NCBI GenBank assembly: GCA_964383765.1 | Contig: CAYLHT010000001.1 | Span: 36,998 to 100,997 of the forward strand | Source of the DNA: an uncultured Gammaproteobacteria bacterium | GTDB lineage: Bacteria; Patescibacteriota; Patescibacteriia; SBBC01; CAIJZX01 | Direction of reading: 5' to 3' | DNA length: 64,000 bases | Shown here: positions 2,837 through 62,397 of the stretch, in pieces | How positions within the stretch are numbered: position 1 is the first letter of the stretch | Layout: every line of letters starts with the position of its first letter | Translations under genes and position numbers: made by a program | Notes under the pieces: generated by a model | What the model was told of the DNA's origin: nothing | The model's database searches: none | What the model saw: only the letters and a program-made list of their open reading frames with translations

Positions 2837-3547
2837 TCATGCCCGCAGCGGCCAAAATTCCAAAATCTCTTTCAGCACTTGATCAGTTTCACAGTCGAGG
2901 AGCATCTCATGACCTGATTTTTCGTGCCAGAGCAATTCTTTTTGAGATTTGAGAAGGTTGTACATTTCCTGGGCGCCGCGGGGGTCGGCCACGTTATCAA
3001 TTCGCGATTGGATAATCCGAACGGGACAACGGACGTGCTCGATGATGCTCCCAACGGTTCGTGTGCGCTCCCAGTACGACCGAAAGGGCGCAATCGGAAA
3101 CCAAAAGTACCCCTTGTCTTCCTTAGCGTAGTCCATGGAGCTGTACCGATCTTTAACAGAGAGGGTTGCACCTTTCACCAATCGCGACACAATCGGTGTG
3201 AGCGCCGTCATTTTGTTCTTAAACTTGATGCACGGTGACAGCAAAACCAAACCAGCCACATGCTTTGGGTGCGCGACCGCTAGTTCCATGGCTAACAAGG
3301 TTCCCATGGAAAGCGCCACGATCACGACCTGGTCGTTGGCCTGTCGCAATAACCGATAGGCTTGATCAACATCATCTTGCCAATGGTGCCAACGCTTATC
3401 CGCCAAATCTTTCGGGTTGGTCCCATGACCTGCTAAGATTGGGTAAGCCCACTCAATCCCCTGTTTGTCCAAAGCCGGCACCAACACCTCAAGCGAGGAG
3501 CGATGCGAGGTGAAACCGTGAATCAGCAGGACGCTGGGTTTATTCAT
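2837..3547 (-). CDS. alpha/beta hydrolase (carboxylesterase-like)
   Basis: HGFTSHRSSLE N-terminal motif, GxSxG nucleophile elbow LSMGT, and 236 aa, typical of the esterase/lipase fold. Confidence 0.75.
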   Translation of the reverse strand: MNKPSVLLIHGFTSHRSSLEVLVPALDKQGIEWAYPILAGHGTNPKDLADKRWHHWQDDVDQAYRLLRQANDQVVIVALSMGTLLAMELAVAHPKHVAGLVLLSPCIKFKNKMTALTPIVSRLVKGATLSVKDRYSSMDYAKEDKGYFWFPIAPFRSYWERTRTVGSIIEHVRCPVRIIQSRIDNVADPRGAQEMYNLLKSQKELLWHEKSGHEMLLDCETDQVLKEILEFWPLRA

Positions 3548-3550
3548 AGA

Positions 3551-4024
3551 CTAGCCTCGAACAGAAATAGTTTTTAGTGTTGCCAGATCAAAACCGCGCG
3601 CATAGAGTTCGTCAGCCTTCCGTAATTCTTCCTCGATCCCCACGTGGGGAAGTGAATTCAACTCCTCTTTCGTGATCCACCGGAAATCAGTAAAGTCCTT
3701 TTCCAGAACAATCGGTCCGTCATTTTCAACCTCACACAAATACGAAAAGAATTTACTATTCTGGCCGTCGGGACGAAGGTAGGTTTTGTCTTTCAACAAA
3801 AACTTCCCAGGTTTCATGGTTAAGCCGGTTTCTTCAAGAATTTCCTTAGCTAAGGTTTCTTCCACCGTGTCATTTCCTTCTACCTTACCCCCGGGAAAAG
3901 TGTACATGCCCGGGTAAGCAACCTCATCATCACGACGTTTCAGGACTAGGTATTTTCCTTCGCCATTTCGAATCACCGCCACAACGGCCACAATATGGAG
4001 CTTCTCGTTCTTAGCGTAGGCCAT
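3551..4024 (-). CDS. NUDIX hydrolase
   Basis: Nudix box GGKVEGNDTVEETLAKEILEETGL (Gx5Ex7REUxEExGU). Confidence 0.85.
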   Translation of the reverse strand: MAYAKNEKLHIVAVVAVIRNGEGKYLVLKRRDDEVAYPGMYTFPGGKVEGNDTVEETLAKEILEETGLTMKPGKFLLKDKTYLRPDGQNSKFFSYLCEVENDGPIVLEKDFTDFRWITKEELNSLPHVGIEEELRKADELYARGFDLATLKTISVRG

Positions 4025-4364: not shown

Positions 4365-5012
4365 TTAGGTAACTTGGAAAATATTTATTCGACGCTCGGC
4401 CGAGAGGATGAACTTGTGTTGCTCGAGAAACACTTTAAGTCCGTCGATATCCCCCTTCGGTCCCATGTACTCCAAAAAATCTTCAAGTGAATCGAATTGA
4501 AAAATTGTTTCATCCCAAATTTCAGCCACTTCATTCATTCTATCCTGGTTGAGCATAGCCGCATAGGCGAGAGCCTTGACCCGACGCTCATCGCCATCAC
4601 CGGCCCCAAATTTTTCCTCAGTCTGTAAAAAGGTGCCATGATTCCCGGCTTCGAGAAAAATTATCCAACCGCCAGGCTTCGTGACGCGAACGGCTTCGTC
4701 AACTGCTTGAGACATGAATTCCGGCGGAACATGGTGGAGTGACAACGTGAAGAAAACGGCGTCAAAATGTTGCTTTTCGAAAGGAAGCTTTTCAGCCGCG
4801 GCGATGTGATAGGAAATATTTGGTCTCGCATGTAGTTTCTGTGCTTCCGCGATGGACTCAGGGTTTGGGTCGACGCCAACCAGGTTTCGTACTTTTTCTG
4901 CCAAAGTTACAGAACGTCCACCCTGACCGCACCCAACCTCAAGAACATGTAACCCCTGAAGCGGGATTACTGCGTTAACTTTTTGAACAAACTCTTCTTT
5001 AAGTCTTACCAT
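4365..5012 (-). CDS. class I SAM-dependent methyltransferase
   Basis: Motif [11 protein letters not shown], 215 aa, overlaps trmD by 14 nt (operon). Confidence 0.8.
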
Positions 5013-18417: not shown

Positions 18418-21075
18418 TTATCGATTCCCGTGCTTCTTGATCATCTCCTCAACCTGGTCCATTTTGACTGAGAGGAGTTGTGAGACTCCATCATCACCCA
18501 TGGTCACGCCGTACAAAATCTGGGCTTTCTCCATAGTGGCGCGGTTATGGGTGATGGTAATGAACTGCGTTTTGTGGGCGAGTTGATCGAGAATCGCGGC
18601 AAAGCGTTGCGAGTTGGCTTCATCCAAAGCGGCGTCGACTTCATCCAGCACCACGAACGGCGAGGGATTGTTGGCAATAATCGCGCACAGCAGGGCAATT
18701 GATGATAACGCTCGCTCACCGCCGGAGAGCATGGCAATCGATTGAAGTTTTTTGCCCGGAGGCGTGGCCTTAATATCAATGCCCGTGACAACTTTTTCAG
18801 CTTGGGGTTCGGGTTTTGGTTCGGCGGCCGGGCCGGTGTCTTGAGCCGCCGCGACTTCGGCTTCAGTCATATCATCGTCTTCGCGGATCGCTTCTTTGAT
18901 CAACACCAGTTCGGCCCGGCCGCCGCGGAAGAGCGCTCGGAAGTAGGTGTTGAACTCGGCGTTGATCTTTTTGAAAGCGGCATCGAATTGTTTTTTGATG
19001 ATCTCATCAAGCTCAGCAATGGCCGCTTCCAACTGTGTAATCCCGGCTTTCAAATCCTCGGCTTGCTTGGATAAGAACTCCCAGCGTTGGTTGGTGTCGG
19101 TGTACTCGGCGGTGACCTGCTCATCAATCCCGCCGATCAGTTCCAACTGATGCTTCAGATGTCCAATTTCTTCGGCCAACATGGCGACGTCGCCGTCCAG
19201 TTTTTTCTTGGCGGCGGCAGTGACTGTTTCAACTCCGGCGGGACCCATGGCCTGTTCGATTTCGCGCTGCAGATCCTCTTGCCGCTGCTCCAGGCGGGCC
19301 AACGAGACCTGTAATTCGTTGACTTGATTGGTGGAAATGTTCAAGCGATGCTGGGTTCCACGGAATTCTTTCTGAAGACTAAAGAGTCGATCTTTCTTGG
19401 TGGTTTCATTCTGGTTGAATTGCTGAATGTCGTCGCGGGCAACTTTCAGGCGCTGATCAGCATCTTCAATTTGACCGTCGAGTTTCTTGACCTGGTCAAC
19501 GTACATGGCGTACGCCTGCTCGGGATGCGTTTTCGCGAGTTCTTCCACGCTTGATTCGGCCTGCCAGTGTTCAAAGTCCGATTTGAGTTTTTGTTGCTGA
19601 TCCGACAAGCGTTGCTGCTGGTCGAGATGACGCTGAACCTCGGTTTGAGCCGTGGCGAGGCGTAAACCTAGGGCTTGACGCTGCGTCGCGAGCTCGAGCA
19701 ATTCTTGTTGCTCCGTTAAGAGCGTGAGCGGATCAACCGCATCATTGGCCGCGCCGAAACGCTGGCTCAGGGATGTCAGCTGTTGATGGACTTTCTCAAT
19801 CGCCGTTCGGACTTTGGGTAACGCCGGCGCTTCAGCGCTCAGTTCAGTGGTGACTTGATCCAAGACCTGAGTCAGGCCATCTACTTCAGACTTAGCTTTT
19901 GACCAACTTAAACTTTTTTGGAGTTGTTGACGGAAGCTCGTTAGTCGCTGTTGAACGCTCGCAAACTTTTTTTCGAGCGTCGCCGATTCGTGTTCGGCTT
20001 GTTTCAATTTCTCGCGGCTGCTCTTCAATAGCGGTTCAAGGGCCTCCAACTCTTCTTGAATTTGGGCGAGCGAACGTTTGACGTCTTGCATCTGCTGTTG
20101 CCGGAAGACCGTTTCGGCTTGACCGGCCTGCCGGGCCGCGACGTCGAGCTTCCCTTTGGCGGCCGAGCGTTGTTCGAGCAATTTATTCTTCTGATCGAGA
20201 ATGTGATTGTAGGCTTTTTGCAATCCGGAAAACTGTTCTGAGGCTGACCGCTCTTTTTCGATCTTTTCGAGTTCCTGTTGGATGGCTTCAATTTCCTTTT
20301 GGATCTCGGCGCGGCGCTGATCGGCTTGACCGTGCTCTTCCGTAACTGTTTTCAGTTCCCGCTGTAGCTCCTGCCAGCGCAAGCCAAAGAAACGTGTGTA
20401 TTCTTGTTTGAGTTCCTGTTCAATTTCTTCACGTCGTTCTAACCGTTTAACCTGGCGCGTGAGTGACCGCAGTCGCGGTTCGATTTCTTGCATGATAGCT
20501 TCACCTTGAGCTAGGTTCTCCTTGCTCTGGGCGAGTTTACTGACGGCTTGTTCGCGCTTCATTTGATACTGTCGTACGCCCGCCGCTTCATCGAACAAGT
20601 GTTTGCGTTCCTGCGGACTCGACAGTAAAAACGAGTCGATCATCCCCTGGCCAATCACCGAATAGGTGCGCTGGCCGAAATTTGCCTGAGCGAGCATCAG
20701 GTGAATGTCCTGTAGGCGGGACGGTTGATTATTAATCATGTACTCACCCTCGCCGTCACGGTAGACGCGGCGGGTCAGAATCAGCTCGCCGTAATCAATC
20801 GGCGCGCGGCGATCGCTGTTGTCGAGGTAGAGCGAGACTTCAGCCACGCCTAAACGTGACTTCTTATCCGACCCGGCAAAAATCACGTCGTCACTCTTTT
20901 TCCCGCGCAGTAACTTAAGTGACTGCTCGCCGAGCACCCAGCGAATCGCGTCAGCCACATTTGATTTGCCTGATCCGTTCGGGCCAACAATCGCGGTAAT
21001 CCCACGCCCAAAATCGAGCGACGTACCGCTGGCAAACGACTTGAAGCCTTGGATCTGTAACTTGGATAAATACAT
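18418..21075 (-). CDS. smc: chromosome segregation protein SMC (compact, 885 aa)
   Basis: N-terminal Walker A GPNGSGKSN, long coiled-coil (E/Q/L/K-rich), C-terminal signature LSGGERALSSIALL and Walker B VVLDEVDAALD. Confidence 0.9.
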   Translation of the reverse strand: MYLSKLQIQGFKSFASGTSLDFGRGITAIVGPNGSGKSNVADAIRWVLGEQSLKLLRGKKSDDVIFAGSDKKSRLGVAEVSLYLDNSDRRAPIDYGELILTRRVYRDGEGEYMINNQPSRLQDIHLMLAQANFGQRTYSVIGQGMIDSFLLSSPQERKHLFDEAAGVRQYQMKREQAVSKLAQSKENLAQGEAIMQEIEPRLRSLTRQVKRLERREEIEQELKQEYTRFFGLRWQELQRELKTVTEEHGQADQRRAEIQKEIEAIQQELEKIEKERSASEQFSGLQKAYNHILDQKNKLLEQRSAAKGKLDVAARQAGQAETVFRQQQMQDVKRSLAQIQEELEALEPLLKSSREKLKQAEHESATLEKKFASVQQRLTSFRQQLQKSLSWSKAKSEVDGLTQVLDQVTTELSAEAPALPKVRTAIEKVHQQLTSLSQRFGAANDAVDPLTLLTEQQELLELATQRQALGLRLATAQTEVQRHLDQQQRLSDQQQKLKSDFEHWQAESSVEELAKTHPEQAYAMYVDQVKKLDGQIEDADQRLKVARDDIQQFNQNETTKKDRLFSLQKEFRGTQHRLNISTNQVNELQVSLARLEQRQEDLQREIEQAMGPAGVETVTAAAKKKLDGDVAMLAEEIGHLKHQLELIGGIDEQVTAEYTDTNQRWEFLSKQAEDLKAGITQLEAAIAELDEIIKKQFDAAFKKINAEFNTYFRALFRGGRAELVLIKEAIREDDDMTEAEVAAAQDTGPAAEPKPEPQAEKVVTGIDIKATPPGKKLQSIAMLSGGERALSSIALLCAIIANNPSPFVVLDEVDAALDEANSQRFAAILDQLAHKTQFITITHNRATMEKAQILYGVTMGDDGVSQLLSVKMDQVEEMIKKHGNR

Positions 21076-32502: not shown

Positions 32503-32554
32503 AATCAGTTTTAGAAAAGTCTGGGCCAAAGTCGCCCGGATTTTTCAACTAAGA

Positions 32555-32590
32555 AAAACGCCCGACCCGGAGGGGAATCCGAATCGGGCG
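32555..32590 (-). terminator. rho-independent terminator, copy 1 of a near-identical pair
   Basis: Minus strand reads CGCCCGATTCGGATTCCCCTCCGGGTCGGGCG followed by TTTTT, placed 11 nt after the stop of the 32605 gene. Confidence 0.7.
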
Positions 32591-32604
32591 GGCGCACTTC
32601 AACT

Positions 32605-33219
32605 TCAGTTTGATCTTCGACGGTAGATCAGCCACAGGATGATGGCGACCAGCAAGATCACCACGTACACCGGACACAGGACCATCAGCACCCAGTTCCG
32701 GATAGCGTAAGCGTAGACGACCCAGAACATGTTGCTGGCTTCGAAGAGTAGCAACAGGCGGATGTCGACAACCCCCGCATCACGTTTTCGCCAGATTTCC
32801 CAGGGCTGAAGCGTCAGGGCGGCCGCTGAGCCACAACTGTAGACGAAGTACCAGCGATCGTGGCCACCGGTCAGCACCATGCCGGCCAGGGAGGCCAACA
32901 ACAATGCGCCGAACCAGTACTCCCACGCCCGGTAGCCTCCAAACTTCCACAGACCGATGGCGATGATCCCGAAGCCAAGACCGAGCACCAGCCCATTGAA
33001 GACCAGGGGCGGCTGTTTCGATGTCCAGCCATAGATCACCGCCGCAGTGCAGAGCGACGTCAGGAACAGCATCATGCCAACCGACATGGATGCTCCTGAC
33101 CGCTGACGCCAGATCTCGCGGATCTGGAATACCAGACCAATTCCCTCCACTACCGTGAAGACATTCACGCCCCAGACGCCAACAGTTTCCGGGGTCCAGT
33201 ACGAAAAGGCTGTATGCAC
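32605..33219 (-). CDS. small multi-TM membrane protein, cassette copy 1 (PQ-loop-like motif)
   Basis: Start set at GTG 33219, preceded by GGAGG (plus CCTCC 33226-33230). The longer ORF reaching 33336 would swallow its own promoter and leader. VFQIREIWRQRSGASMSVGMMLFLTSLCTAAVIYGW resembles a PQ-loop repeat. Confidence 0.5.
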   Translation of the reverse strand: MHTAFSYWTPETVGVWGVNVFTVVEGIGLVFQIREIWRQRSGASMSVGMMLFLTSLCTAAVIYGWTSKQPPLVFNGLVLGLGFGIIAIGLWKFGGYRAWEYWFGALLLASLAGMVLTGGHDRWYFVYSCGSAAALTLQPWEIWRKRDAGVVDIRLLLLFEASNMFWVVYAYAIRNWVLMVLCPVYVVILLVAIILWLIYRRRSN

Positions 33220-33326
33220 CTGGTGCCTCCGATGTGGAACCGTTGGATTGTCCAGGGACCGTGAGAGAATCCACTGAAGTATGGTCGAGCCGAAAACGCT
33301 CGACGTTTCGCAAAGGGCAACGAGCG

Positions 33327-33355
33327 AAATTAGCATAAATGTTAGCCGATGTCAA
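33327..33355 (-). promoter_or_regulatory. sigma70-type promoter of cassette copy 1
   Basis: Minus strand reads TTGACA, 17-nt spacer, TAATTT. Confidence 0.5.
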
Positions 33356-33372
33356 GACTGACACTCTGAAAT

Positions 33373-33410
33373 AAAAAACGCCCGACCCGGAGGTGAATCC
33401 GAATCGGGCG
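33373..33410 (-). terminator. rho-independent terminator, copy 2
   Basis: Same hairpin as 32555-32590 with one substitution (GGGG to GGTG in the loop), followed by TTTTTT on the minus strand. Confidence 0.7.
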
Positions 33411-33454
33411 AACAGATTGCTACTTCAGGGGGACACTGGCATTGACGTACGTCG

Positions 33455-34144
33455 TCAGTGTTGAAGTCTGTAGAAACTGCTCAGCGTGGCAAGTTCATCT
33501 CGCCAGCGGCCGTTTCCGTTCCGCCGATCGTAGTAGATCAGAATACCCAGCGTCGTTGCACTCATCACGGCTCCGCGCAGGGTGTTCACGATTCCATGAT
33601 GGCTGTGAGTCAGCAACGCAGCGATCAAACCGACTGCCGACGCCAAGAAGATCAGGCCCCAGTTACCAATCGAGTCGAAGGCGGCTCGACGTCTCAGGGC
33701 TTTTCCGATCGTGGCGAAGTAGGCCACCACCATCAGCACCTGAGTCGTCCAAAAGGTGACACCGGGTTGATTCCTGTGCAAGCCCCAATAGACGAGGGTC
33801 AAGGCCATGGTCGACAAGCAAGCCGACTGGACGCCATCGAACGCCACGCGCAGCTCCCCCGATCGTGCTTGAACGATCAGAATGCTGAACGTGATGATGG
33901 TGATTTCCAGCGCCGCCGCATACAACGCCGTGTTGGCCACCAGCTTTTCCGAAAAGCTCCGATCCGGAATCGCCTGGTAGGCGATCATCGACAGATTCAT
34001 CGCCAGGCAGGCAATGATCCACGTGGCCGGAGCAGGGTTAACGCGGCGGCGGATCACAAGTGGGCAGTACCAGCCCACCGTTGCCGCGAACAGCAGCAAA
34101 CTAAGCAGACTAGCAAAACTGGCCACGAGTCCTCCCGCTTTCAT
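33455..34144 (-). CDS. small multi-TM membrane protein, cassette copy 2
   Basis: ATG at 34144 (MKAGGLVAS...); 6 predicted TM helices; C-terminus LIYYDRRNG is similar to copy 1's LIYRRRSN. Confidence 0.5.
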   Translation of the reverse strand: MKAGGLVASFASLLSLLLFAATVGWYCPLVIRRRVNPAPATWIIACLAMNLSMIAYQAIPDRSFSEKLVANTALYAAALEITIITFSILIVQARSGELRVAFDGVQSACLSTMALTLVYWGLHRNQPGVTFWTTQVLMVVAYFATIGKALRRRAAFDSIGNWGLIFLASAVGLIAALLTHSHHGIVNTLRGAVMSATTLGILIYYDRRNGNGRWRDELATLSSFYRLQH

Positions 34145-34208
34145 AAGTGGGTCCACTGAAGTATGGTCGAGCTGAAAACGCTCGACGTTTCACAAAGGAC
34201 GACCGGCG

Positions 34209-34237
34209 AGACTACCACAAAATTCGGAAATTGTCAA
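34209..34237 (-). promoter_or_regulatory. sigma70-type promoter of cassette copy 2
   Basis: Minus strand reads TTGACA, 17-nt spacer, TAGTCT, followed by the conserved leader hairpin GTCGAGCgttttcaGCTCGAC. Confidence 0.5.
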
Positions 34238-34271
34238 TCCCTGGGTCGGCTATGTGCTATACTGTGGCCGC

Positions 34272-34970
34272 ATGTCTTTAATCAAACTGGACAATATTAC
34301 TAAAGTTTTCGACGTCGGCGACGACAAGTTCAAAGCGCTCGACGACGTTTCGTTATCTATTTCACCGGGCGAATTTGTCGCGATCATGGGACCGTCCGGC
34401 AGCGGCAAATCAACATTGATGAATGTGATTGGTTTGCTTGACCGTCCGACCGGTGGAACCTACAAACTGGATGGCAAGCCGGTGTCACTCACGATGTCCG
34501 ACCGGGCGCAAGCGAAACTGCGTTCAGAATTTATTGGTTTCGTTTTTCAAAACTTCAATTTATTGCCCAATCTCGATGTTCTCGCCAATGTGATGTTACC
34601 GTCGACGTATGCCCGCTCCTTCTCACCTAACCTCTCCTCCCAAGGGAGGAGAGGAGGGAAGCTGGGGCGCGCCGTCGAGATACTAAACAATGTCGGACTC
34701 GGTCACCGTTTGCACTACCACGTCACGAAGCTGTCCGGCGGCGAAAAACAGCGCGTCGCGATCGCCCGCGCTTTGATGAATAATCCAAAAGTGATTCTGG
34801 CCGATGAACCAACCGGCAACCTCGATTCAAAATCTGGCAAAGAAGTCATGACGTTGTTGATGGACTTGAATACGAAGGGCACAACCCTGATTGTCGTAAC
34901 GCACAGCGATGAATTAGCGGCACTTGCGAATCGGATCATCCGAATAATGGATGGGAGAATAGTTTCATGA
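34272..34970 (+). CDS. ABC transporter ATP-binding protein (MacB/LolD-type) containing an in-frame palindromic insertion
   Basis: Walker [10 protein letters not shown], signature [15 protein letters not shown], Walker B ILADEPT. The start is set at [13 protein letters not shown]. The [12 protein letters not shown] stretch is encoded by the palindrome at 34631-34654. Confidence 0.85.
34631..34654. repeat. perfect palindrome CCTCTCCTCCC-aa-GGGAGGAGAGG (MITE-like element, copy A) inside the ABC ATPase gene
   Basis: The 11-nt arms are exact reverse complements. The core CCTCCTCT/AGAGGAGG is shared with the elements at 42296-42356 and 59611-59682. Confidence 0.7.
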
Positions 34971-37520: not shown

Positions 37521-38579
37521 CTAGAAGCGTCGGCCGAGCAGGATCGTGAGTGATCCAGCCGGCAACCATTCGTTCTTGAATTGCGTGTCGCGATTACCAA
37601 AGCCAATCGCGGTCCGAGCCTCAAGGTCGAATGACCTCGAGGACACCCGGGCGACGACACCCACCTTCCCGAACACAGTGCGTTCGGTGTAGTGGTAGGT
37701 CGGGTCCAATCGCCAATCGCCTTCGGCGCCAAGCACCCATGACCATGGCTGCTTGACGCGTCCGAACTCGACTTCACCGGACCACACCTGATCATCGTTG
37801 TTCTTGGCGAACCGACGACCTTCATATCCGGTCAGGCTGGTGACGCGTCCGTTGACGACGTGGCTGAGTCGCACGCCGATGATCGGCATGTGGTAGTTGC
37901 TGCCGGTGGCGACGTGCCAACCGATGACCGGCTCGATCGTCCACATGGCCGGTCGGCTGATCACGTACGGCCGCTCGAATACCGGCGGCGGTTGAGGCAG
38001 CGGCGTGACCTGGGTGACAGGCGTGGCGACCGGTGCGGTGAAGACTTGATACACGCCGCGCCGGTCGTTGATGATGACCGTTGCCAGTACCGTTGAACGG
38101 TACCCAGTCTTGGCGTTGACCCAATTCGCACGGGCCAAACCCAAGCTGTAATTATTCAGTTGCGACAGGTTGCGCGTGTTGCGCTTCCCGTCGAACCGTT
38201 GCGGGTCGGTCGCCCCGATCAGATACCCGCCGGGGTGGAGACGCTGCAGCTGGTCGACCGCGATGTTGCGCGATGCACCCGGGGTGAACCCCGAGACGAA
38301 GATGACACCCGTGACGCGCTCACCGCGGTAGGCGAAGAGCGTGTCGAAGACGGCGTCGGACTGCGGCGTGCGGTCCGGTACCTCGGAACGTCCGGCGTCC
38401 CGCTTGATGGCGCTGTCGACATCCTTCGTATCTGAGTCCCGAGCCTTGTCTCGACCCGCACCGTTCATGATGGCATGGGTGGGACTGTTGAAGGTTGGTC
38501 TCAGATGAACGCTTGGCTGAGCCGAAACGATGCCTGGCAGCAGGAGGCACAGGCCCAACAATACGACTGCTGTTCGCAT
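37521..38579 (-). CDS. secreted beta-rich protein ending in a C-terminal Phe (outer-membrane-barrel-like)
   Basis: Signal peptide MRTAVVLLGLCLLLPGIVSA, alternating hydrophobic beta-strand pattern, C-terminus ...ILLGRRF; GC-rich. Confidence 0.45.
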   Translation of the reverse strand: MRTAVVLLGLCLLLPGIVSAQPSVHLRPTFNSPTHAIMNGAGRDKARDSDTKDVDSAIKRDAGRSEVPDRTPQSDAVFDTLFAYRGERVTGVIFVSGFTPGASRNIAVDQLQRLHPGGYLIGATDPQRFDGKRNTRNLSQLNNYSLGLARANWVNAKTGYRSTVLATVIINDRRGVYQVFTAPVATPVTQVTPLPQPPPVFERPYVISRPAMWTIEPVIGWHVATGSNYHMPIIGVRLSHVVNGRVTSLTGYEGRRFAKNNDDQVWSGEVEFGRVKQPWSWVLGAEGDWRLDPTYHYTERTVFGKVGVVARVSSRSFDLEARTAIGFGNRDTQFKNEWLPAGSLTILLGRRF

Positions 38580-40236: not shown

Positions 40237-42623
40237 GATGTTAGTGATGAAAATCTTTTTAAGCGCAAGGAATTGAGAACGACAAACAATGACGAAAACG
40301 CCATCGCGCCCGAAGCAATAATTGGGCTGAGCGTCACTTGAAAGGCGGGATAGAGCACGCCGGCCGCAATCGGTAAGCCAAGCAGATTGTAGATAAATGC
40401 CCAGAACAAATTCTGTTTGATATTGCGGAGCGTGGATCGAGCCAGGTCGAGAGCCGTGACTACCTGTTGCAGATCATTAGCCACAATGGTAATTCCTGCG
40501 GCTTCGCGCGCGACGTCCGTGCCGGAGCCCATGGCGATGCCAACATTGGCTTGAGCTAAAGCCGGCGCATCGTTGACGCCGTCGCCGACCATGGCGACGC
40601 GTTGACCTCGTGATTGTAATTCTTTGATCTTGGTCGCCTTATCTTGAGGCAAGACATTCGCGATGACGTTGGCCGGATCAATCCCAGCCTGCTGGGCGAT
40701 GTGGCGGGCCGTAATGTCGTTATCGCCGGTCAGCAGATAGGCCTGAACTCCACGCAAACGAAGTTGTTCAATCGCCTTGGCGGTTGTCGGTTTAATCGTA
40801 TCGGCTACGCCAATCACGCCGGCGCATTCGTTATCAACTCCAACCTGGACTGCGGTTTTGCCGCCCATGGCCAACTCTTCGCGATTCAAGCGGCATCCTT
40901 CCGCATGCATGCCCAGCCGCTCCAGTAACCGTGGAGCGCCAACGACCACACGCTTGCCATTAATTTTCCCACTCACGCCAGTGCCGGGATGGGCTTGAAA
41001 ATCCGTGACAGGCAAGAGTGTAAGTTCCCGTCGTTTTGCTTCAGCCACAATCGCTTGTCCAATCGGATGTTCACTTCGTGATTCGAGTGATGCAGCGTAT
41101 TGCAAAATGAAATCACGACCGAGGACATCAGTGACCGCGAGTTTGCCAGTCGTTAACGTTCCGGTTTTATCGAAGACCACTGCATCGATTTTTTGCAGAC
41201 CTTCTAGCGCTTCGGCATTGCGGATGAGAATCCCATGCTCTGCGCCCTTGCCGACGCCGATCATGACGGCGGTGGGTGTCGCGAGTCCTAATGCGCACGG
41301 ACAGGCGATGATCAAGACGGTGACCGCAAGGATCAGCGCAAAACTCAGCGGCGTGACACCTACCGGCGGGAAGATCATCCACACCACAAACGTCAGGATC
41401 GCAATGCCAATCACGATGGGCACGAACACGCCCGAAATTCGATCCGCTAAACGCTGAATTGGCGCCTGGGAACTTTGGGCTTCTTCCACCAGGTGAATAA
41501 TTTGACTCAGCAGCGTCTGCCCGCCGACTTTGGTGGCACGGAACGTCAGCGTGCCATTGGCGTTGACCGTCCCACCATAGACCGTACTCCCAGCTCGCTT
41601 TTCATTCGGGAGACTTTCTCCGGTGACCATCGCTTCGTCGACCGCCGATTGTCCTTCGGTCACGATGCCGTCGACCGCGATTTTTTCGCCCGGACGCACC
41701 ATGATCAGGTCATTCACCTGAACTTGATCGAGTGAAATTTCAACTTCCTGTCCGTTCCGGATCACGCGTGCAGTTTTGGCCGCCAGCCCAGCCAGCTTGC
41801 GAATCGCGTCGTTGGCGCCGGCTTTCGCCCGCGCTTCCAGTAATTTGCCAAGCAGAATCAGGGTGATGATCACCACCGTCACATCAAAATATGTCGCCGG
41901 CGCATGCCCGCTACCGCTGAACGCGTTTGGCCAAACCACGGCCACCAGGCTGAAGACATATGCGGCGCCGGTCCCCACCGCCACCAGCGTATCCATATTG
42001 GCTTGAAAAAACTTCAACGATTTCCAGGCACTGATGTAAAACTGCGATCCCGCCCAAACAATCATCCCGCTCGCGACGATTAACTTGACGACGTTCCATA
42101 GGTTTTCCGACCCGACCGCGACACCAATCATCCGAGCAATATCCGGAAACATCACGATGACTGAGGCCACGATACCAACGGCAACCTTTGTCTGGAGGGT
42201 GCGGAGTTCCAGCTGGCGGAGTATGCGAGCATGATCGTGGACACTATGATCCAAACCACCCGTTTCGTGGGCGTGTTCGTGGGCATGGGTGTGGTCACTC
42301 TTCCCCCCAATCCCCCTCCTCTCAATTGAGAGGAGGGGGGTGTCGGGGGTGGAGTGAATGACCGCGGTGTACCCAAGGTCGGCAACGCGCTGACCAATAG
42401 TGTCAGGTGAGCACTGATGAGGATCATACTCAACTTTTGCCCTTTCGGTCGCATAGTTGACCTGCGCTGATGTCACCCCCGGCAATTTCTTGACTACGCG
42501 TTCAATACTTTTTGCGCACGAAGCACAGTGCATTCCAATCACCGGGAATGTCAACGTCGACTCAGTCATCCTACTTGACGAGGTTGATTGGTTTTCCTGC
42601 CGCGAACGCTTCAACATTGGCAA
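40233..42623 (-). CDS. copA: copper-translocating P1B-type ATPase with an in-frame MITE-like insertion in the HMA-to-TM linker
   Basis: HMA motif [11 protein letters not shown] motif [11 protein letters not shown], phosphorylation site DKTGTLT, HP and GDGVNDAP motifs. The element at 42296-42356 encodes ...[21 protein letters not shown].... Confidence 0.9.
42296..42356. repeat. nested palindromic MITE-like element, copy B (CACTCttcccccc..CCCCCTCCTCTCaattGAGAGGAGGGGG..gggggtGGAGTG)
   Basis: Outer arms CACTC/GGAGTG and inner 12-nt perfect arms around AATT. Shares its core and outer arms with copy C at 59611-59682. Confidence 0.7.
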
Positions 42624-50752: not shown

Positions 50753-51706
50753 ATGGCGTCGTTCTACCGACGGGAGGTACTCCAGCAAGCTTGGGCCATT
50801 ATTTGGCGGAAGAAGTATTTGTGGTTCATCGCCTTTTTCGGCGGCCTGGCTTCCTACGGGGGCGAAGTCAATTTTCTGTTCCGAAAATTTAATGCGGTCG
50901 CGACCTTCCAGTCGTACCTGGTCGCCATTCGCAAACTATTCGTTGAGGGGAAAGCCCAAACCTATCTCCATCAATTTACGCACGTTTTCCAACAGGCGCC
51001 CGGAGTAATCTTGGGCTATCTTGGCGTTGGCCTCGCGATCCTCGTGATCGGGCTCTGGTTGATGTTCGTGTCCCAAGGCGCGGTTATTCGCATTGTTGGT
51101 CGGTCACAAGAGAAGAAGTCTAGCGATTTTCTTGATGGCGTGGCCACCGGCGCGGAGAAATTTTGGGCAATTGTGCAGCTTAACATCATTGCTGTTCTAC
51201 TGGGATGGGCCGGGTGGATTATTGTGGCCGGCCTACCGGCGACCATTTATTTCCTGTCCGGTCAGGTAGCCTGGGCGGAAATCGCCCGAGTGGGGGCGGT
51301 GGTGTCGGTACTCTTGAGCGCTATTATCACGCTGGTCACCCAATATTCAACGGCAGCGGTGATCTTGCGAGGCCTCAGTCCGGTGCCGGCGTTAGCGGAT
51401 AGTTGGAAACTGTTCCGTCGCAATGTTGCGGTCAGCATCGAAATGGCATTGATCATTTTCCTGATTAATCTCGGGATCTTGGTTGTTTCGTTTGGAATCT
51501 TCGACGCCTTCGGTCTGTTCTTCTCGGCGGCCGGCTTGATTACACTCCTGGTCTTAATCGCGGTTGAGTTCGGTGCACTGAGTGCCTTCAACCTGTCGGC
51601 CTGGACAATTCTCTACCAGAAACTCGTGGCCGGCCGGGTCAACAGTAAAATCGGCGAGTGGACAACGCAGCTGGCGAGTTTCGCCAAGAACAAACAAACC
51701 ACCTAA
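50753..51706 (+). CDS. hypothetical polytopic membrane protein
   Basis: 317 aa with 6 or more TM helices. Confidence 0.45.
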   Translation: MASFYRREVLQQAWAIIWRKKYLWFIAFFGGLASYGGEVNFLFRKFNAVATFQSYLVAIRKLFVEGKAQTYLHQFTHVFQQAPGVILGYLGVGLAILVIGLWLMFVSQGAVIRIVGRSQEKKSSDFLDGVATGAEKFWAIVQLNIIAVLLGWAGWIIVAGLPATIYFLSGQVAWAEIARVGAVVSVLLSAIITLVTQYSTAAVILRGLSPVPALADSWKLFRRNVAVSIEMALIIFLINLGILVVSFGIFDAFGLFFSAAGLITLLVLIAVEFGALSAFNLSAWTILYQKLVAGRVNSKIGEWTTQLASFAKNKQTT

Positions 51707-51759: not shown

Positions 51760-51939
51760 GGGCAGGTAGCTCAGCTGGTTAGAGCAGTCGTCTTACCCGC
51801 CTGCCTAGCCGGCCTCTAGCTCAATGGCAGAGCGTCCGTCTTATACACGGATGGTTCCAGGTTCGAATCCTGGGAGGCCGACTAGGACGGCGGGCAGGTA
51901 CACGACCGGTCGATGGTTCGAATCCATCCCTGCCCACCA
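51760..51939 (+). tRNA. tRNA-Val(UAC)-like gene split by a 103-nt insert after anticodon nt 36 (exons 51760-51796 and 51900-51939)
   Basis: The 5' exon is GGGCAGG-TA-GCTCAGCTGGTTAGAGC-A-GTCGT-CTTAC. The 3' exon is AC-ACGAC-CGGTC-GATGG-TTCGAAT-CCATC-CCTGCCC-A-CCA. The acceptor stem has 7/7 bp, the anticodon stem 5/5 bp, and the reconstituted loop is CTTACAC. Confidence 0.5.
51810..51881 (+). tRNA. tRNA with anticodon UAU (tRNA-Ile2-like), embedded in the insert of the split tRNA-Val
   Basis: CGGCCTC-TA-GCTC-AATGGCA-GAGC-G-TCCGT-CTTATAC-ACGGA-TGGTT-CCAGG-TTCGAAT-CCTGG-GAGGCCG-A forms a perfect cloverleaf; no CCA is encoded. Confidence 0.7.
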
Positions 51940-53792: not shown

Positions 53793-53870
53793 TGGTGCGC
53801 GCATCTGGATTTGAACCAGAGACCTTCACAATGTCAATGTGACGCTCTAACCGGGCTGAGCTATGCGCGC
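53793..53870 (-). tRNA. tRNA-Val(GAC)
   Basis: Minus strand GCGCGCA-TA-GCTCAGCCCGGTTAGAGC-G-TCACA-TTGACAT-TGTGA-AGGTC-TCTGG-TTCAAAT-CCAGA-TGCGCGC-A-CCA. Confidence 0.9.
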
Positions 53871-54062: not shown

Positions 54063-57000
54063 TTAGCTTTCTAATCCGAGATCACGGCGATAGCGCTTGA
54101 GACCCACGAAGCCTACAATCATCAAGATCAAACCGATCATGAAGATCATGTAGTCGCGGAGACCAACGCCGGTCGTCGCCAGACCGAGGACTTGTGGAAC
54201 CTTGACGGTGACTTGGGCGGTTGCGCTGACGGGATCAACTCCGTTGGCGGCTACGACTGCAGTGTTCGTGTAGACGCCAGCTTTAACATCCGAACCAACT
54301 TTGACCGCATAGGTCAGCGTGGTCGAAGCGCCGGCGGCGAGCGTACCGAGCGACCATGACTTGGTGCTGTCGCCGCCATCCACAAAGGTGAAGCCGGTTG
54401 GTAGCGTGTCGGTCATAACCGTATCGGTCGCATCGCCGTCGCCGGTGTTGGTGATCGTGACCGTGTACGTGACCGTTCCGCCCGGATTAACCGTGGTTGG
54501 ATTCGCCGACTTGGCAATGGTGAGATTTGGCGATTTGGCGGCCAAGACTTGCGGGATCCGGACATCCACATTTGATGTGGCTGAGACCTGGGTGGTGTTG
54601 TCGCCCTTGGCCGTGGCGGTGTTGGTATGAATACCAGCGGCTGCGGCCGGACTAATGTTGACAGTGTAGGTCACCGTCACGGAAGCGCCTGGCGCGAGAT
54701 CACCGATGGACTGCGAGCTGGTGGTGCCGCCGCCGAGGAAGGTGAAGTCAGCCGGCAGGAGATCAGTCAGAATCACGTTGTGCGCCATATCGGTCGCGCT
54801 GGCGCTGTTGGTCACTACCACCGTGTAGATGACTGTCGTTCCCGGATTCGTGAAGGTGGTCAAGTTATTGACCTTGGTGATGGAGATGCTCGGCGCGGAA
54901 CTGACCGTGGTGCGGGCGCCGTCGCAGACTTGATCGGTTTGATCGGTGTCGAAGCAACCGGTGTTACTGATGACCGTGTTATTCGCAATCGGGCTGGCTA
55001 CCTTGACGACTAAACCAACCGTTCCGCTCGCGCCTGGCGCTTTGGTGCCGAGGTTCCAGGTGACCGTCTTGGTCGCGGCGTTGAACGTCCCGCCGTTGTC
55101 GGCCGAGACGAAGGTGGTGTTGGCCGGAATGACATCAGTAATGACGGCGTTGGTGGCCGTAGTATTTCCAGCGACCGTCCAGGCTAGCGAGTAGCTAATG
55201 TTTCCGCCGGCGTTAACTGTGGCCGGACCAGTCTTGTCGACCGTGATGGTCGTCAGATCCTTGGTGTTCGTGAAGACACAGATAATATTTTGATTATTGT
55301 GCAGGCTCAGGTCGACCGAAGTGGTTTGCGGTAGGTTCTGGTCGAGGTTACAGCTGACACTGGTGAAGTGGAAGCCAGTCTGCATGTTCTCAGAGATAGT
55401 GTAGGCGCCGGTGTCGAGCGTACGGCTTTGACCGGTGGCGATGTTTTGTTCGCCGCCTTGGATATTCCAGCTCCAGTTCGTCGCGCCGAAGACGTCGACT
55501 TTACCGTCGCCGTCCGTGTCGACATTCTTCAGGACCGTAATCGTGCCAGTTTGGCGGGTGTTCGTGAACGTACACACGACAGCGCTGCCGTTGCCGACGG
55601 TGATGCTACCGTCTTGACCCGCCGAGATCGGTTGACCGTTGTCGGTGCAGACGAGCGCGGGGGTGTAATCGCTCAACCCACCATTTTCCGAGACATAATA
55701 CGTTCCGGTGTCGACGGTATTCGATCCGGTCGTGCCATTCGCACCGACCACGAGTTGGCTATCAACTTCGTTGCCCCCAGCCGTGGTGCCGATCATCAAG
55801 GTCGTTGTTCCGGCGGTTCCAGACCAGACTTTCTTGAGTTCAATCGTACCTTGCTGACGTGTGTTCGTGAACGTGCAAACGACCGCGTGACCCTTCCCAA
55901 CGGTCAAAGAGTTATTGGCGCCGGGGGTGACGGCTTGACCATTGTCGGTGCAAACGAGTGCGGAATCGTAGTTCGTCAGTCCGCCTGTTTCTGACACATA
56001 AAATGTGCCAGTGCCAACGGTTTTGGTACCAGTTGTGCCGTTGCCTGAAACTGGTTGGCTAGCAATTTGGCTACCACCAGCCGTCGAGCCGATGTTCAGT
56101 GTGGTCGAACCGGCTGTACCAGACCAGATTTTCTTGAGTTCAATGGTACCCGTATCGCGGGTGTTCGTGACGGTGCAGGTTTTAACATCGCCGCCAGCCA
56201 CCGAACCGCTGCAGTCCGCGCTGTAGCCGGCGGTAAAGCCAGTCGGACCGCTTTCAGTGACATTGTAATTACCAACCGTAACCGTCTTGGTTGTACCGGC
56301 TTCTGAACCTGGGAAGGAGTTACCGCCGGTCGCAGTTACGCCGTTGATGGTCATGGTGAAGTCACCGGCGACGTTTTGACTGCCACCGCCATTGACGACA
56401 TGTTTTATGACCGTTAATTTCGGTGCAGCGACCGTAACCTTGGGTTGGGGTCGGGCTTGGGACGGCGCATTTTGATCATTCGTAATGTTGGCGACGTTGT
56501 GCACGATGGTTTCGCCGACCGGGAATGATCCGCCGGTCAGGGTGCCGTGGATAGTAATACTACCCGAGGCTCCCACCGCTAATGTCCCGATATTCCAGAC
56601 ATTGTTACCGCTGGATGGTGCTGGGGTTGAGCTCGTGAACACGAAGTGTGAATCGTAGGTCTCCGTGATCACGACGTTCGTTAAGTCGATGTTACCCGTG
56701 TTCGAGTAGTTCAAGGTGTAGGTTAAGGCATCGCCGGGATTGGCCGTGCTCTTATCAACGAGTTTTTCCAAGGCCGACTTCGGTTGGATCGGAACCGTGA
56801 TGGCGCTGTTCTGGTCGATGTTGTAGTGGAAGCTTGAACCAGACTGGTCAAGCACGGTGTAGAGCAAGTCTTGGTTACCGGCGGCTAAGGCGCGGAAGTG
56901 GAAGTCCGAGTTGACGGTGTTGCCTTCGTTGGTGGCGTAAATATCATTTTCGGTATTGCCATCACTGTAGGCCGTCATCACCGATTCGAGTTGCACGCCC

Positions 57001-59610: not shown

Positions 59611-59682
59611 CACTCCACCCCCTCGGCTGCGCCGGTCCCCCTCCTCTGAATTCAGAGGAGGGGGACGATGGGGGGAGGAGTG
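59611..59682. repeat. nested palindromic MITE-like element, copy C (intergenic, 7 nt after the rluD stop)
   Basis: CACTCCACCCCC..GTCCCCCTCCTCTGaattCAGAGGAGGGGGAC..GGGGGGAGGAGTG; the inner 14-nt arms are perfect. The right arm forms AGAGGAGGGGG-ACG-ATG (an SD plus start) for ORF 59668-59934. Confidence 0.7.
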
Positions 59683-60074
59683 AAGAAACACCCGGTGTTG
59701 ACCAGGCAAGTTAAGCCTGGTAGCGTTTGGACGCACTGGAAGGCTCTTAGTTGCTTGGTCAACCCAAGCTCACAACGCGAAGGAGTGAACATGATCCCAC
59801 GGGCGGTTGCAACCACAGGAATCGGCTACACTCTCCTCGTTGGAGTTCTAGAAGGACTTCGATGGTTGGCCAAACGGTTGTGGCCACAGGAGGTAACCAA
59901 GCATGACATCGCAAAATGCACCTCCCAGAAGTGAAGGACTAGGGAAGCCGATCATCTTAATGCTCATCGTGCTGGCTCTCGGGATAGGATTCGCTCTGTT
60001 CCTCAACGAGCTCGATCACAACCGAAAGCCTGGAGTCACACACCACCAACCATTCCTGCCGTAAGGAGGGATGT

Positions 60075-61219: not shown

Positions 61220-61308
61220 GCGGACGTGGCGGAACTTGGTATACGCGCCAGCTTGAGGGGCTGGTGGCCGCAAGGCCTTGGAGGTTCGAGTCCTCTCGTC
61301 CGCACCAA
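61220..61308 (+). tRNA. tRNA-Leu(GAG)
   Basis: Type II tRNA: GCGGACG acceptor, anticodon arm CCAGC-TTGAGGG-GCTGG, long variable arm TGGCCGCAAGGCCTT, T-arm GGAGG-TTCGAGT-CCTCT, CCA encoded. Confidence 0.85.
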
Positions 61309-61320
61309 GTCGCTCTTTCC

Positions 61321-61397
61321 GGACGATTAGCTCAGTTGGTTAGAGCGTCTCGTTTACACCGAGAAGGTCGTAGGTTCGAATCCTACATCGTCCACCA
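61321..61397 (+). tRNA. tRNA-Val(UAC)
   Basis: GGACGAT-TA-GCTCAGTTGGTTAGAGC-G-TCTCG-TTTACAC-CGAGA-AGGTC-GTAGG-TTCGAAT-CCTAC-ATCGTCC-A-CCA. Confidence 0.9.
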
Positions 61398-61416
61398 AAC
61401 ATGTTAAACTAAAAAC

Positions 61417-61659
61417 ATGAAGTGGCTGATCGCAATTGCCGTTATCGGTGTGGGTAGTCTGATGGTTATCAAAACTCAGTGGATCACGGATTTTACCGGA
61501 CCGATTGATTGGGCCGAACAACATCTCGGATCTGAGGGCGGGACACGACTTTTCATCAAACTCCTGGGCGTGATTCTGATCCTGGGCGCATTCCTTGGGG
61601 TGACGGGAATTCTGGGTGGATGGATTACTGGATTTTTTGGGGGGTTGGGACAGAGATAG
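61417..61659 (+). CDS. small membrane protein between tRNA genes (hypothetical)
   Basis: 80 aa with two TM helices and a glycine-zipper-like C-terminus; located between tRNA-Val and tRNA-Ala. Confidence 0.3.
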   Translation: MKWLIAIAVIGVGSLMVIKTQWITDFTGPIDWAEQHLGSEGGTRLFIKLLGVILILGAFLGVTGILGGWITGFFGGLGQR

Positions 61660-61663
61660 TATT

Positions 61664-61736
61664 GGGCCAGTAGCTCAGTTGGTAGAGCATCCGGTTTGCA
61701 TCCGGAAGGTCTGGGGTTCGAATCCCCACTGGTCCA
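61664..61736 (+). tRNA. tRNA-Ala(UGC)
   Basis: GGGCCAG-TA-GCTCAGTTGGTAGAGC-A-TCCGG-TTTGCAT-CCGGA-AGGTC-TGGGG-TTCGAAT-CCCCA-CTGGTCC-A; no CCA encoded. Confidence 0.9.
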
Positions 61737-61744
61737 CTAAAAAA

Positions 61745-62240
61745 ACACCCGGTCTCGGAGTCGTGTCGAGGATTATCCATCCAGGATGCACGACCCGAGG
61801 CCGGGGTTGGTGGAGCGACGCGCGAATGCCCGGAGAGCCGGGTAGGCTGTTATCCGTGCAAGCGCCAGTGGCGCTGCAATACGGGAGCCTTGAGCCTCGG
61901 CGATGGGCGCCGCCGCGAATGCGGCGGTCTAGTGCGCGGTATCAACTTGCGCGTGAGCGAGCCCAACGACATCGTCGTTGTGTTCCCTATTCGAGGGAAC
62001 CTATCGGTGTTTTGGGTGAATCTCAATTCACCGACTGGCTCTTGCGGCCTCACGCCGCGGCGGTACTCTTCTTCATGGCGACCTCCATGGTTGGCCAGAA
62101 AGCGGGCGCACTCCCAGGGTTGGGACTGCCCCGACAGTGAAGACTTTTTCAAGATGCCCGAGCAGTATACACCCTTTTCGGATTTTGTCAAGACGGGCTT
62201 GAAAATAATGCCCAAGTCAGCTATCCTTGCCAGGCAATTT
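61745..62240 (+). other. GC-rich, hairpin-dense, ORF-poor block between tRNA-Ala and tRNA-Phe; unassigned structured RNA candidate
   Basis: Contains the hairpins CCCGGTCTCGG...CCGAGGCCGGG (with inner GTCGTG/CACGAC), GCGCC-agt-GGCGC and CCGCCGC-gaat-GCGGCGG, plus the 12-mer CCGGGTAGGCTG and CTTGAGCC seen in bacterial RNase P RNA. The only ORFs here are low-complexity or span the tRNA. Confidence 0.25.
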
Positions 62241-62245
62241 TGATC

Positions 62246-62320
62246 GCCTGGGTAGCTCAGTGGTAGAGCGCAGCCCTGAAGAGGCTGGCGTCGTCAGTTC
62301 GATTCTGACCCCAGGCACCA
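62246..62320 (+). tRNA. tRNA-Phe(GAA)
   Basis: GCCTGGG-TA-GCTCAGTGGTAGAGC-G-CAGCC-CTGAAGA-GGCTG-GCGTC-GTCAG-TTCGATT-CTGAC-CCCAGGC-A-CCA. Confidence 0.9.
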
Positions 62321-62321
62321 C

Positions 62322-62397
62322 GGCCCGATAGCTCAATTGGTAGAGCAGCTGCCTCTTAAGCAGCGGGTTGCAGGTTCGAGTCCTGCTCGGGTCACCA
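62322..62397 (+). tRNA. tRNA-Lys(CUU)
   Basis: GGCCCGA-TA-GCTCAATTGGTAGAGC-A-GCTGC-CTCTTAA-GCAGC-GGGTT-GCAGG-TTCGAGT-CCTGC-TCGGGTC-A-CCA. Confidence 0.9.

Follow-up and report, generated by a model that had tools for sequence, protein, structure and literature searches.

Two single-gene units with shared flanks

We analysed a 64-kb stretch of a Patescibacteriota genome (contig CAYLHT010000001.1 of assembly GCA_964383765.1, positions 36,998 to 100,997; hereafter the window, which is also the search space for all copy counts below), in which two different membrane-protein genes sit between near-identical non-coding flanks. Positions 34237 to 32554 of the window hold two full single-gene units, A and then B, with all of their features on the minus strand.

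Unit A opens with a promoter-like site at 34209-34237, identified by pattern match (TTGACA, a 17-nt spacer and TAGTCT, with TG at -15/-14). Its 70-nt leader repeat (34152-34221) has a 47-nt core (34152-34198) that contains the palindrome GTCGAGC-GTTTTCA-GCTCGAC at 34166-34186. Gene A (33455-34144) encodes a seven-transmembrane (7-TM) protein whose family is unannotated and whose structural model resembles the SWEET/PQ-loop fold; downstream of the gene comes the first copy of a terminator repeat (T1, 33374-33428; hairpin at 33379-33410, then T6). T1 sits 18 nt upstream of the -35 box of unit B, whose promoter-like site (33327-33355; again a pattern match, TTGACA-17-TAATTT with TG at -15/-14) is accompanied by the second 70-nt leader repeat (33270-33339; 47-nt core 33270-33316, palindrome 33284-33304). 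Downstream of this core comes a unit-specific stretch of 50 nt that closes with GGAGG and the GTG start of gene B (32605-33219), which encodes a 204-amino-acid, 7-TM bacterial SWEET-like protein (MtN3_slv/PQ-loop). The second terminator repeat (T2, 32554-32608; hairpin at 32559-32590, then T5) begins at the gene B stop codon, the TGA within CTGAAGT. At the payload-side edge of leader A lies the 8-mer TACTTCAG (34156-34163), also present in leader B (33274-33281), and the payload-side edge of T1 carries its complement, CTGAAGTA (33421-33428); the T2 counterpart of the latter is CTGAAGT at 32602-32608.

The repeat finder reports the leader repeat as 70 nt at 86% identity with a spacing of 882, and over the core from CCTTTG to GTGGA the two copies agree at 45/47 positions (96%). 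The initial annotation had put the identity of 53-nt leaders at about 94%; the near-identity stands, at 48/53 (91%), and the right register of copy A is 34152-34204, one nucleotide off the 34153-34205 given there. The hairpin it described in each leader is present as GTCGAGC-N7-GCTCGAC, perfect in both copies, and matches nowhere else in the window even with 2 mismatches allowed (chance expectation 0.27). It does not lie just before the start codon, as had been stated: in unit A, 39 nt separate its end from the GTG at 34126 (21 nt from an alternative ATG at 34144), and in unit B the distance to the GTG at 33219 is 64 nt. The predicted hairpins, each with a 7-bp stem and a 7-nt loop, have stabilities of -11.2 and -11.3 kcal/mol and would occupy approximately positions +16 to +36 of each predicted transcript. 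The conserved leader is not coding in both genes under a different start model: copy A has an in-frame TGA directly upstream of the hairpin, and the hairpin would fall into different reading frames in genes A and B. A 15/18 match to the leader hairpin arm and loop (AGTTCAAAGCGCTCGACG) occurs at 34327-34344 in an ABC ATPase gene; this match is a half-site only, in codons of a conserved protein motif, and is probably due to chance.

The TTGACA-17-TAnnnT promoter that had been claimed for each unit on the minus strand is present as a sequence pattern at 33327-33355 and 34209-34237, which makes these putative promoters. We counted 5 occurrences of TTGACA-N17-TAnnnT in the window, where 0.39 would be expected, and both promoter-like sites were missed by a strict consensus scan because their -10 boxes are weak, each matching TATAAT at 3/6 positions. 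Similarly, the same terminator with one substitution had been reported for both units, and we recovered it as 32-nt hairpins at 32559-32590 and 33379-33410. These are the two occurrences in 64 kb (chance expectation 0.00), within a shared terminator block of 55 nt at 85% identity (repeat finder). The terminator hairpin, with a stem of 13 pairs (-24.2 kcal/mol) followed by T5-6, lies 44 nt downstream of the stop codon of gene A and 14 nt downstream of that of gene B. Both T1 and T2 thus combine a G+C-rich hairpin with a T-run on the strand of the gene, as Rho-independent terminators do, and the 3′ hairpins would be ordinary intrinsic terminators.

Another small hairpin, TGACG-acgta-CGTCA (33443-33457), begins at the gene A stop and is outside the shared block. 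In gene A and in its orthologues at loci L131-L133, L135 and L137, a small hairpin begins at the stop codon or immediately behind it and precedes the terminator, with stems that vary by lineage (GCTGAGC/GCTCAGC, GGTCG../GGCCGTG..).

Differences between the two units are distributed unevenly. In the leader core, 2/47 positions are mismatched, compared with 16/39 in the promoter and +1 region (Fisher p = 3e-5); in the terminator hairpin and T-run the count is 1/37, compared with 7/18 in the 5′ flank (p = 1e-3). Loops and unpaired flanks are conserved to the same degree as stems. Because mismatches avoid the leader and terminator cores, the pattern implies that selection on sequence, not on pairing alone, or else short gene-conversion tracts would keep the cores alike. 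Either process would have held the cores at about 96-97% identity, with neighbouring bases having drifted to about 60%.

Two protein families with a predicted SWEET-like fold

The start of gene B at GTG 33219, favoured by the initial annotation, coincides with the position at which orthologue N-termini begin. Against Pfam, the protein scores 31.7 bits with MtN3_slv (PF03083; cut-off 23.7, E = 1.6e-7, in two stretches) and matches PQ-loop (PF04193) at E = 0.004, and its profile retrieves the SemiSWEET 4rng from PDB sequences (E = 0.0055). The AlphaFold model has seven long helices at a mean predicted local distance difference test score (pLDDT) of 68. Using Foldseek, we found that this model matches AtSWEET13 (5xpd; E = 5e-4, TM score 0.69) as well as cystinosin, the KDEL receptor and SemiSWEET, the last three with probability of about 1. 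In the model, the protein has the 7-TM, 3+1+3 fold that superposes on solved SWEETs. By both sequence and model, gene B is a bacterial full-length SWEET-like protein, with transport of sugar only putative. SWEETs with seven transmembrane helices have already been reported in bacteria (PMC5742349).

Gene A encodes 223 amino acids from GTG 34126 or 229 from ATG 34144, the NCBI call. GGAGG lies 4 nt upstream of the GTG, and this is the likely start, judging from the GGAGG-4/5-nt geometry and an N-terminal length that is the same as in orthologues; the ATG is possible. The protein has no Pfam or NCBIfam hit, and its profile found nothing relevant among PDB sequences. Its family is nevertheless sizeable, comprising 269 clusters at E ≤ 1e-3 among 1.8 billion representatives; ten distant relatives gave no convincing Pfam hit, with one weak match to LAB_N (E = 0.0086). 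The AlphaFold model, at a mean pLDDT of 90, has seven long helices and matches SWEET, cystinosin and KDEL-receptor structures with probability of about 1 and a TM score of about 0.5. For gene A, the likeness to SWEETs would be one of fold only.

Models of A and B retrieve the same solved structures (the SWEETs 5ctg and 5xpd, cystinosin and the KDEL receptor). At the sequence level, where the initial annotation noted marginal similarity, BLASTP gives E = 0.17, and profile-profile comparison detects no homology (hhalign probability 0.3%). Taken together with separate sets of orthologues, the latter result shows that the two genes are not close paralogues. On these comparisons and the models, A and B appear to share a fold superfamily and to be different, anciently separated families.

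At locus L136, a 191-amino-acid multi-pass membrane protein (1117-1692) is encoded 21 nt upstream of a gene A orthologue in an operon-like arrangement, and its N-terminal motif is gene A-like (PNPASW compared with NPAPATW). We considered this protein as a bridge between families A and B and rejected it, as hhalign was not significant.

Relatives of the two genes in other Patescibacteria

Orthologues of both genes occur in other Patescibacteria, one source being labelled 'Patescibacteria group bacterium'. Those of gene B are 65-71% identical, with more distant ones at 35-61%, and those of gene A are 50-63% identical. In every lineage, A- and B-family genes stand alone, in differing neighbourhoods; A-B adjacency is seen only in the window. 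In L007, the gene that follows gene B was compared with gene A as a possible homologue and ruled out.

Sequence around gene B was available for five lineages outside the window (L001, L002, L006, L007 and L145). In 5/5 of these, a palindrome of the form GTCATnAG...CTnATGA directly follows the -10 box (at approximately 3905-3927 in L001 and in L002, 2293-2315 in L006, 3632-3654 in L007 and 519-541 in L145), forming a putative operator-like site or 5′ hairpin. Gene B of the window is without this palindrome and has the leader type of its neighbour instead. It keeps a gene B-like -10 box, the unit B -10 region resembling that of its orthologues (TGCTAC.T) in alignment; the proximal 50 nt, which include the ribosome-binding site, are likewise its own. 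Because the GTCATnAG palindrome is found in the orthologues and none of their leaders has the window type, gene B of the window probably acquired its neighbour's leader.

Gene context offers a hint as to substrate. On the P0187 contig, gene B comes last in a row that begins with an NrtR-type Nudix regulator and continues with a Nudix gene and NAMPT; in L007, NAMPT is found three genes upstream of gene B. The presence of an NrtR-type regulator, Nudix and NAMPT near gene B orthologues suggests that gene B may transport an NAD precursor, and in this the context in two lineages departs from the sugars associated with SWEETs. PnuC-type transporters under NrtR, NiaR or NadR are comparable, being small transporters with a palindromic operator near the promoter, and gene B orthologues likewise adjoin NAMPT and an NrtR-like gene and carry a palindrome after the -10 box. 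PnuC shares the SWEET-like fold; we found no PnuC (PF04973) hit. NrtR operators are mostly palindromes of 21 bp that have GT-N7-AC as their core (PMC2330246). The window palindrome is likewise a 21-bp symmetric site with perfectly symmetric arms; unlike those operators, it is without a central GT-N7-AC, GT and AC being found only at its outer ends, nor does the window contain a gene for NrtR, Nudix or NAMPT.

A further feature of gene B is its bracketing by direct repeats. In the window, the promoter, leader and gene B are flanked by the 55-nt terminator repeats at a spacing of 820. L002 has, in the same layout, a 49-nt terminator-like repeat (86%, spacing 783) at 3824-3872 and 4607-4655, of which copy 1 lies 20 nt before the -35 box, where no co-directional gene ends, and copy 2 begins at the stop codon. 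In L007, a 50-nt repeat (78%, spacing 908) is found at 3491-3540 and 4399-4448; copy 1 coincides with the 3′ end of the upstream gene, DUF1761, and copy 2 is a degenerate duplicate of that 3′ end placed after the gene B terminator (YAIFGGVFAVWK* versus YTVFCGIFAVWK*). In both of these loci, the bracketing pair is the sole direct repeat of at least 30 nt in 6-9 kb. Direct repeats of about 50 nt thus enclose gene B in 3/6 lineages. The gene A-family loci have such repeats in 0/11 cases. The window repeat includes the stop codon of gene B, whose product extends one residue past the end of the P0003 and P0004 orthologues. These arrangements suggest that a duplicative process may have inserted or rearranged gene B units on more than one occasion, a single mechanism not being established because the repeat sequences differ between genomes.

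Recombination hot-spots, also raised by the initial annotation, were approached only indirectly, through these direct repeats and the 8-nt inverted repeat. The longest complementary run measures 8 nt (TACTTCAG/CTGAAGTA) and is weakly significant: a fraction of 0.029 of shuffles reaches this length in unit A and 0.0145 in unit B, and the two units are not independent for this test.

To look for the window leader elsewhere, we built a covariance model from its two copies and ran it on the window and 18 orthologue loci (19 sources). It retrieves only the two window copies (E about 6e-18). Weak hits at 51637-51695, 19805-19853 and 37796-37820 (E > 3) are coding-like, have no promoter-like site and were set aside as chance. 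No Rfam family was found on the leader, even at E ≤ 10, and local alignment of the leader core with 14 orthologue leaders gave p ≥ 0.1 for all. A motif noticed by eye in the gene A-family leaders of L131-L133 and L137 (CTTTGnnAA..GCRAGCG) was not significant in the alignment test. In a scan of a genome collection, a looser hairpin pattern with 19 specified bases matched in at least 120 unrelated high-G+C genomes.

Leaders of gene A orthologues from Hainich groundwater metagenomes contain a structured insert of about 110-125 nt, located at approximately 2850-2960 in L132 (equivalent to approximately 3822-3945 in L003) and likewise in L133, with L131 being without it. The insert comprises an outer helix (GAGATTTTGAA/TTCAAAATCTC), a 16-bp inner helix (ATGAGCAGCGCATTGA/TCAATGCGCTGCTCAT) and two small hairpins, and has no Rfam match. 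On the Patescibacteria contig of L007, 5831-5937 on the minus strand matches the SAM riboswitch at 43.4 bits, compared with an Rfam gathering threshold of 44.4 (E = 9e-7).

Elsewhere in the window, nested palindromic elements of about 65-75 nt (TCACTC..CCCCCTCCTCTnAATTnAGAGGAGGGGG..GGAGTGA) are found at 42295-42360 and 59611-59685, one of the two falling inside a 796-amino-acid open reading frame. A related palindrome at 34620-34670 lies in the ABC ATPase frame, at a point where the protein has an extra segment. The nested palindromes may be in-frame insertions of a palindromic repeat. The window also contains a 16S rRNA gene truncated by the window start (1-1600), seven tRNA genes (51810-51881, 53796-53870 and 61220-62394, with five clustered at 61.2-62.4 kb) and tandem coding repeats with a period of about 300 nt at 55539-56204.

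Origin and possible role of the shared flanks

Together, these observations are best explained by regulatory flanks that were copied or homogenised in this lineage around two different genes for transporters of the SWEET fold, a reading to which we assign a probability of roughly 0.5 and which predicts that the genes are co-regulated. The locus would then comprise two independent single-gene transcription units for two different 7-TM transporter families with the SWEET/PQ-loop fold, and the flanks would be copies of regulatory DNA made within this lineage, not leftovers of a recent gene duplication. The terminator of gene A would have been repeated beyond the far side of gene B, creating the bracketed unit, and the recurrence of such bracketing at gene B points to a possible duplicative insertion or recombination event. 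The palindrome with its conserved flanks would act as one cis-regulatory site, read sequence-specifically. By analogy, we lean slightly towards an operator in the DNA, recognised by a dimeric repressor, and away from a hairpin in the RNA to which a factor or ligand would bind; whether operator or RNA, both transporters would respond to one signal. The arrangement resembles the growth of regulons by copying of promoter/operator or leader modules, and the concerted evolution of nearby repeats through gene conversion: non-homologous genes of one genome have near-identical regulatory DNA, with the identity confined to functional cores. It differs in that 5′ leader and 3′ terminator are both copied here and the units are adjacent, which yields interleaved direct repeats.

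Had a single transporter gene been duplicated in tandem along with its flanks, and had the coding parts then diverged quickly, the repeat order would likewise be leader, terminator, leader, terminator, and both proteins do share a 7-TM fold in their models. Coding similarity is undetectable, however, against 96-97% identity in the non-coding cores, a contrast that is the reverse of neutral or accelerated divergence, and each gene is closer to relatives elsewhere (65-71% and 50-63%) than to its neighbour. On this sequence evidence, simple duplication and divergence is refuted, and with it the duplication and rapid divergence proposed by the initial annotation, the genes belonging to different families with separate orthologues. 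The other half of that proposal, replacement of a gene in a cassette-like arrangement, was partly upheld, as gene B of the window lacks the palindrome of its orthologues and the family shows bracketing repeats. Another reading would make the units passengers of one family of small non-autonomous mobile cassettes, with the 5′ and 3′ hairpin blocks as element ends, as in IS200/IS605-type or integron-like elements, and with payload exchange at TACTTCAG/CTGAAGTA. In its favour, the similarity between the units breaks off sharply at the payload-side edges, the site of the 8-nt inverted repeats, gene B lies between direct repeats in half of its lineages and in a different context in each, and the genome has other repeated palindromic elements. 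Like integron cassettes and palindrome-associated elements, the window has differing payloads between hairpin-forming blocks, and repeats bracket gene B in several genomes; unlike cassettes, which are usually promoterless, the window units have their own promoters. We looked for attC sites as R″/R′ boxes (RYYYAAC/GTTRRRY) with a nearby integrase, and found no such boxes in the blocks and no integrase among the neighbours. Further points against mobility are that there are just two adjacent copies in 64 kb, with an 8-nt inverted repeat and no target-site duplication around the blocks, an arrangement that does not fit a dispersed repeat or miniature element; that no transposase or integrase lies within about 10 kb; that leader, terminator and gene B have no hits in viral contigs; that the 8-mer complementarity is weak (p about 0.02-0.03) in units that are not independent; and that the L002 and L007 repeats are unrelated in sequence to the window blocks. 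We consider mobile cassettes improbable.

The leader might instead be a cis-acting regulatory RNA, either a small riboswitch or a hairpin bound by a protein or small RNA, that governs the translation or stability of both mRNAs, its conserved unpaired flanks forming the recognition surface. This would fit a stable hairpin (-11 kcal/mol) within the predicted 5′ untranslated region, with loop and flanks conserved like the stem. The two core differences (U/C at alignment column 13 and A/G at column 32) would be compensatory in an alternative helix, YGAAA/UUUCR, but this compensatory pair is a single event. The z-score against shuffled sequences is -2.5 for the 49-nt core of copy A, a better fold than the shuffles give, compared with -1.2 for the copy B core and -0.9 and -1.1 for the whole leaders. 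The minimum-free-energy fold of copy A pairs 5′ GUCCU with AGGAC at the ribosome-binding site, yet predicted pairing of that site is not above shuffled leaders (0.83 versus 0.70 ± 0.20 for A, 0.62 versus 0.84 for B). The stem has no G-U pairs and no U-tract after it, and so is not an attenuator. Given also the missing Rfam match, the absence of covariance-model matches from the orthologue loci and the lack of significant similarity to orthologue leaders, a known or widespread riboswitch is not supported, and a lineage-specific RNA element is in our view the less likely reading. Of the shared RNA-level element that the initial annotation had put forward, the shared element remains plausible in light of the mismatch distribution (p = 3e-5), whereas action at the RNA level finds no support in the Rfam and covariance results, in the comparison with orthologue leaders or in the predicted masking of the ribosome-binding site, which does not exceed that of shuffled leaders. 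Two further RNA interactions were considered and rejected: anti-Shine-Dalgarno pairing of leader CCUUU/ACUUC with GGAGG, predicted to be no higher than in shuffled leaders, and a pseudoknot of the 5′ flank with the hairpin loop, which by our own reasoning is sterically impossible with a zero-nt third loop.

Several observations weigh against copied or homogenised regulatory flanks. Only two leader copies exist, precluding a covariation or regulon test, and the evidence for the direction of copying, from A to B, is indirect. Leaders within the gene A family are heterogeneous, such that the window leader is not demonstrably native to gene A. No regulator gene was found within about 10 kb of the locus, tblastn with NAMPT and Nudix queries found nothing in the window, and the palindrome misfits the published NrtR core GT-N7-AC (PMC2330246). 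Direct repeats around gene B are absent from L001, L006 and L145/L146, and those of L002 and L007 are not only unrelated in sequence to the window repeat but also somewhat different in geometry. Finally, the interleaved order of leader 1, T1, leader 2 and T2 needs two events, or a tandem duplication with payload replacement.

A more specific proposal, which we put forward as an unlikely one, is that, in Patescibacteria, gene B and its promoter form an insertion unit of about 0.8 kb that has no transposase, lands at terminators or gene 3′ ends and duplicates about 50 nt of flank, and that here it also swapped an ancestral, possibly NrtR-type, operator for its neighbour's leader. If this were true, regulatory flanks consisting of a 5′ element and a terminator would be reused as a portable expression frame around different payloads.

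No major concept is altered by these findings. They do provide leads in an unannotated 7-TM family of about 270 clusters, a link between a SWEET-like protein and NAD salvage, and recurrent repeats of about 50 nt around one small gene. If the flanks of gene B were indeed copied, the locus would represent natural regulatory rewiring in a bacterium with a reduced genome, in which gene B takes on the leader and terminator of its neighbour and two uptake systems are presumably coupled to one signal.

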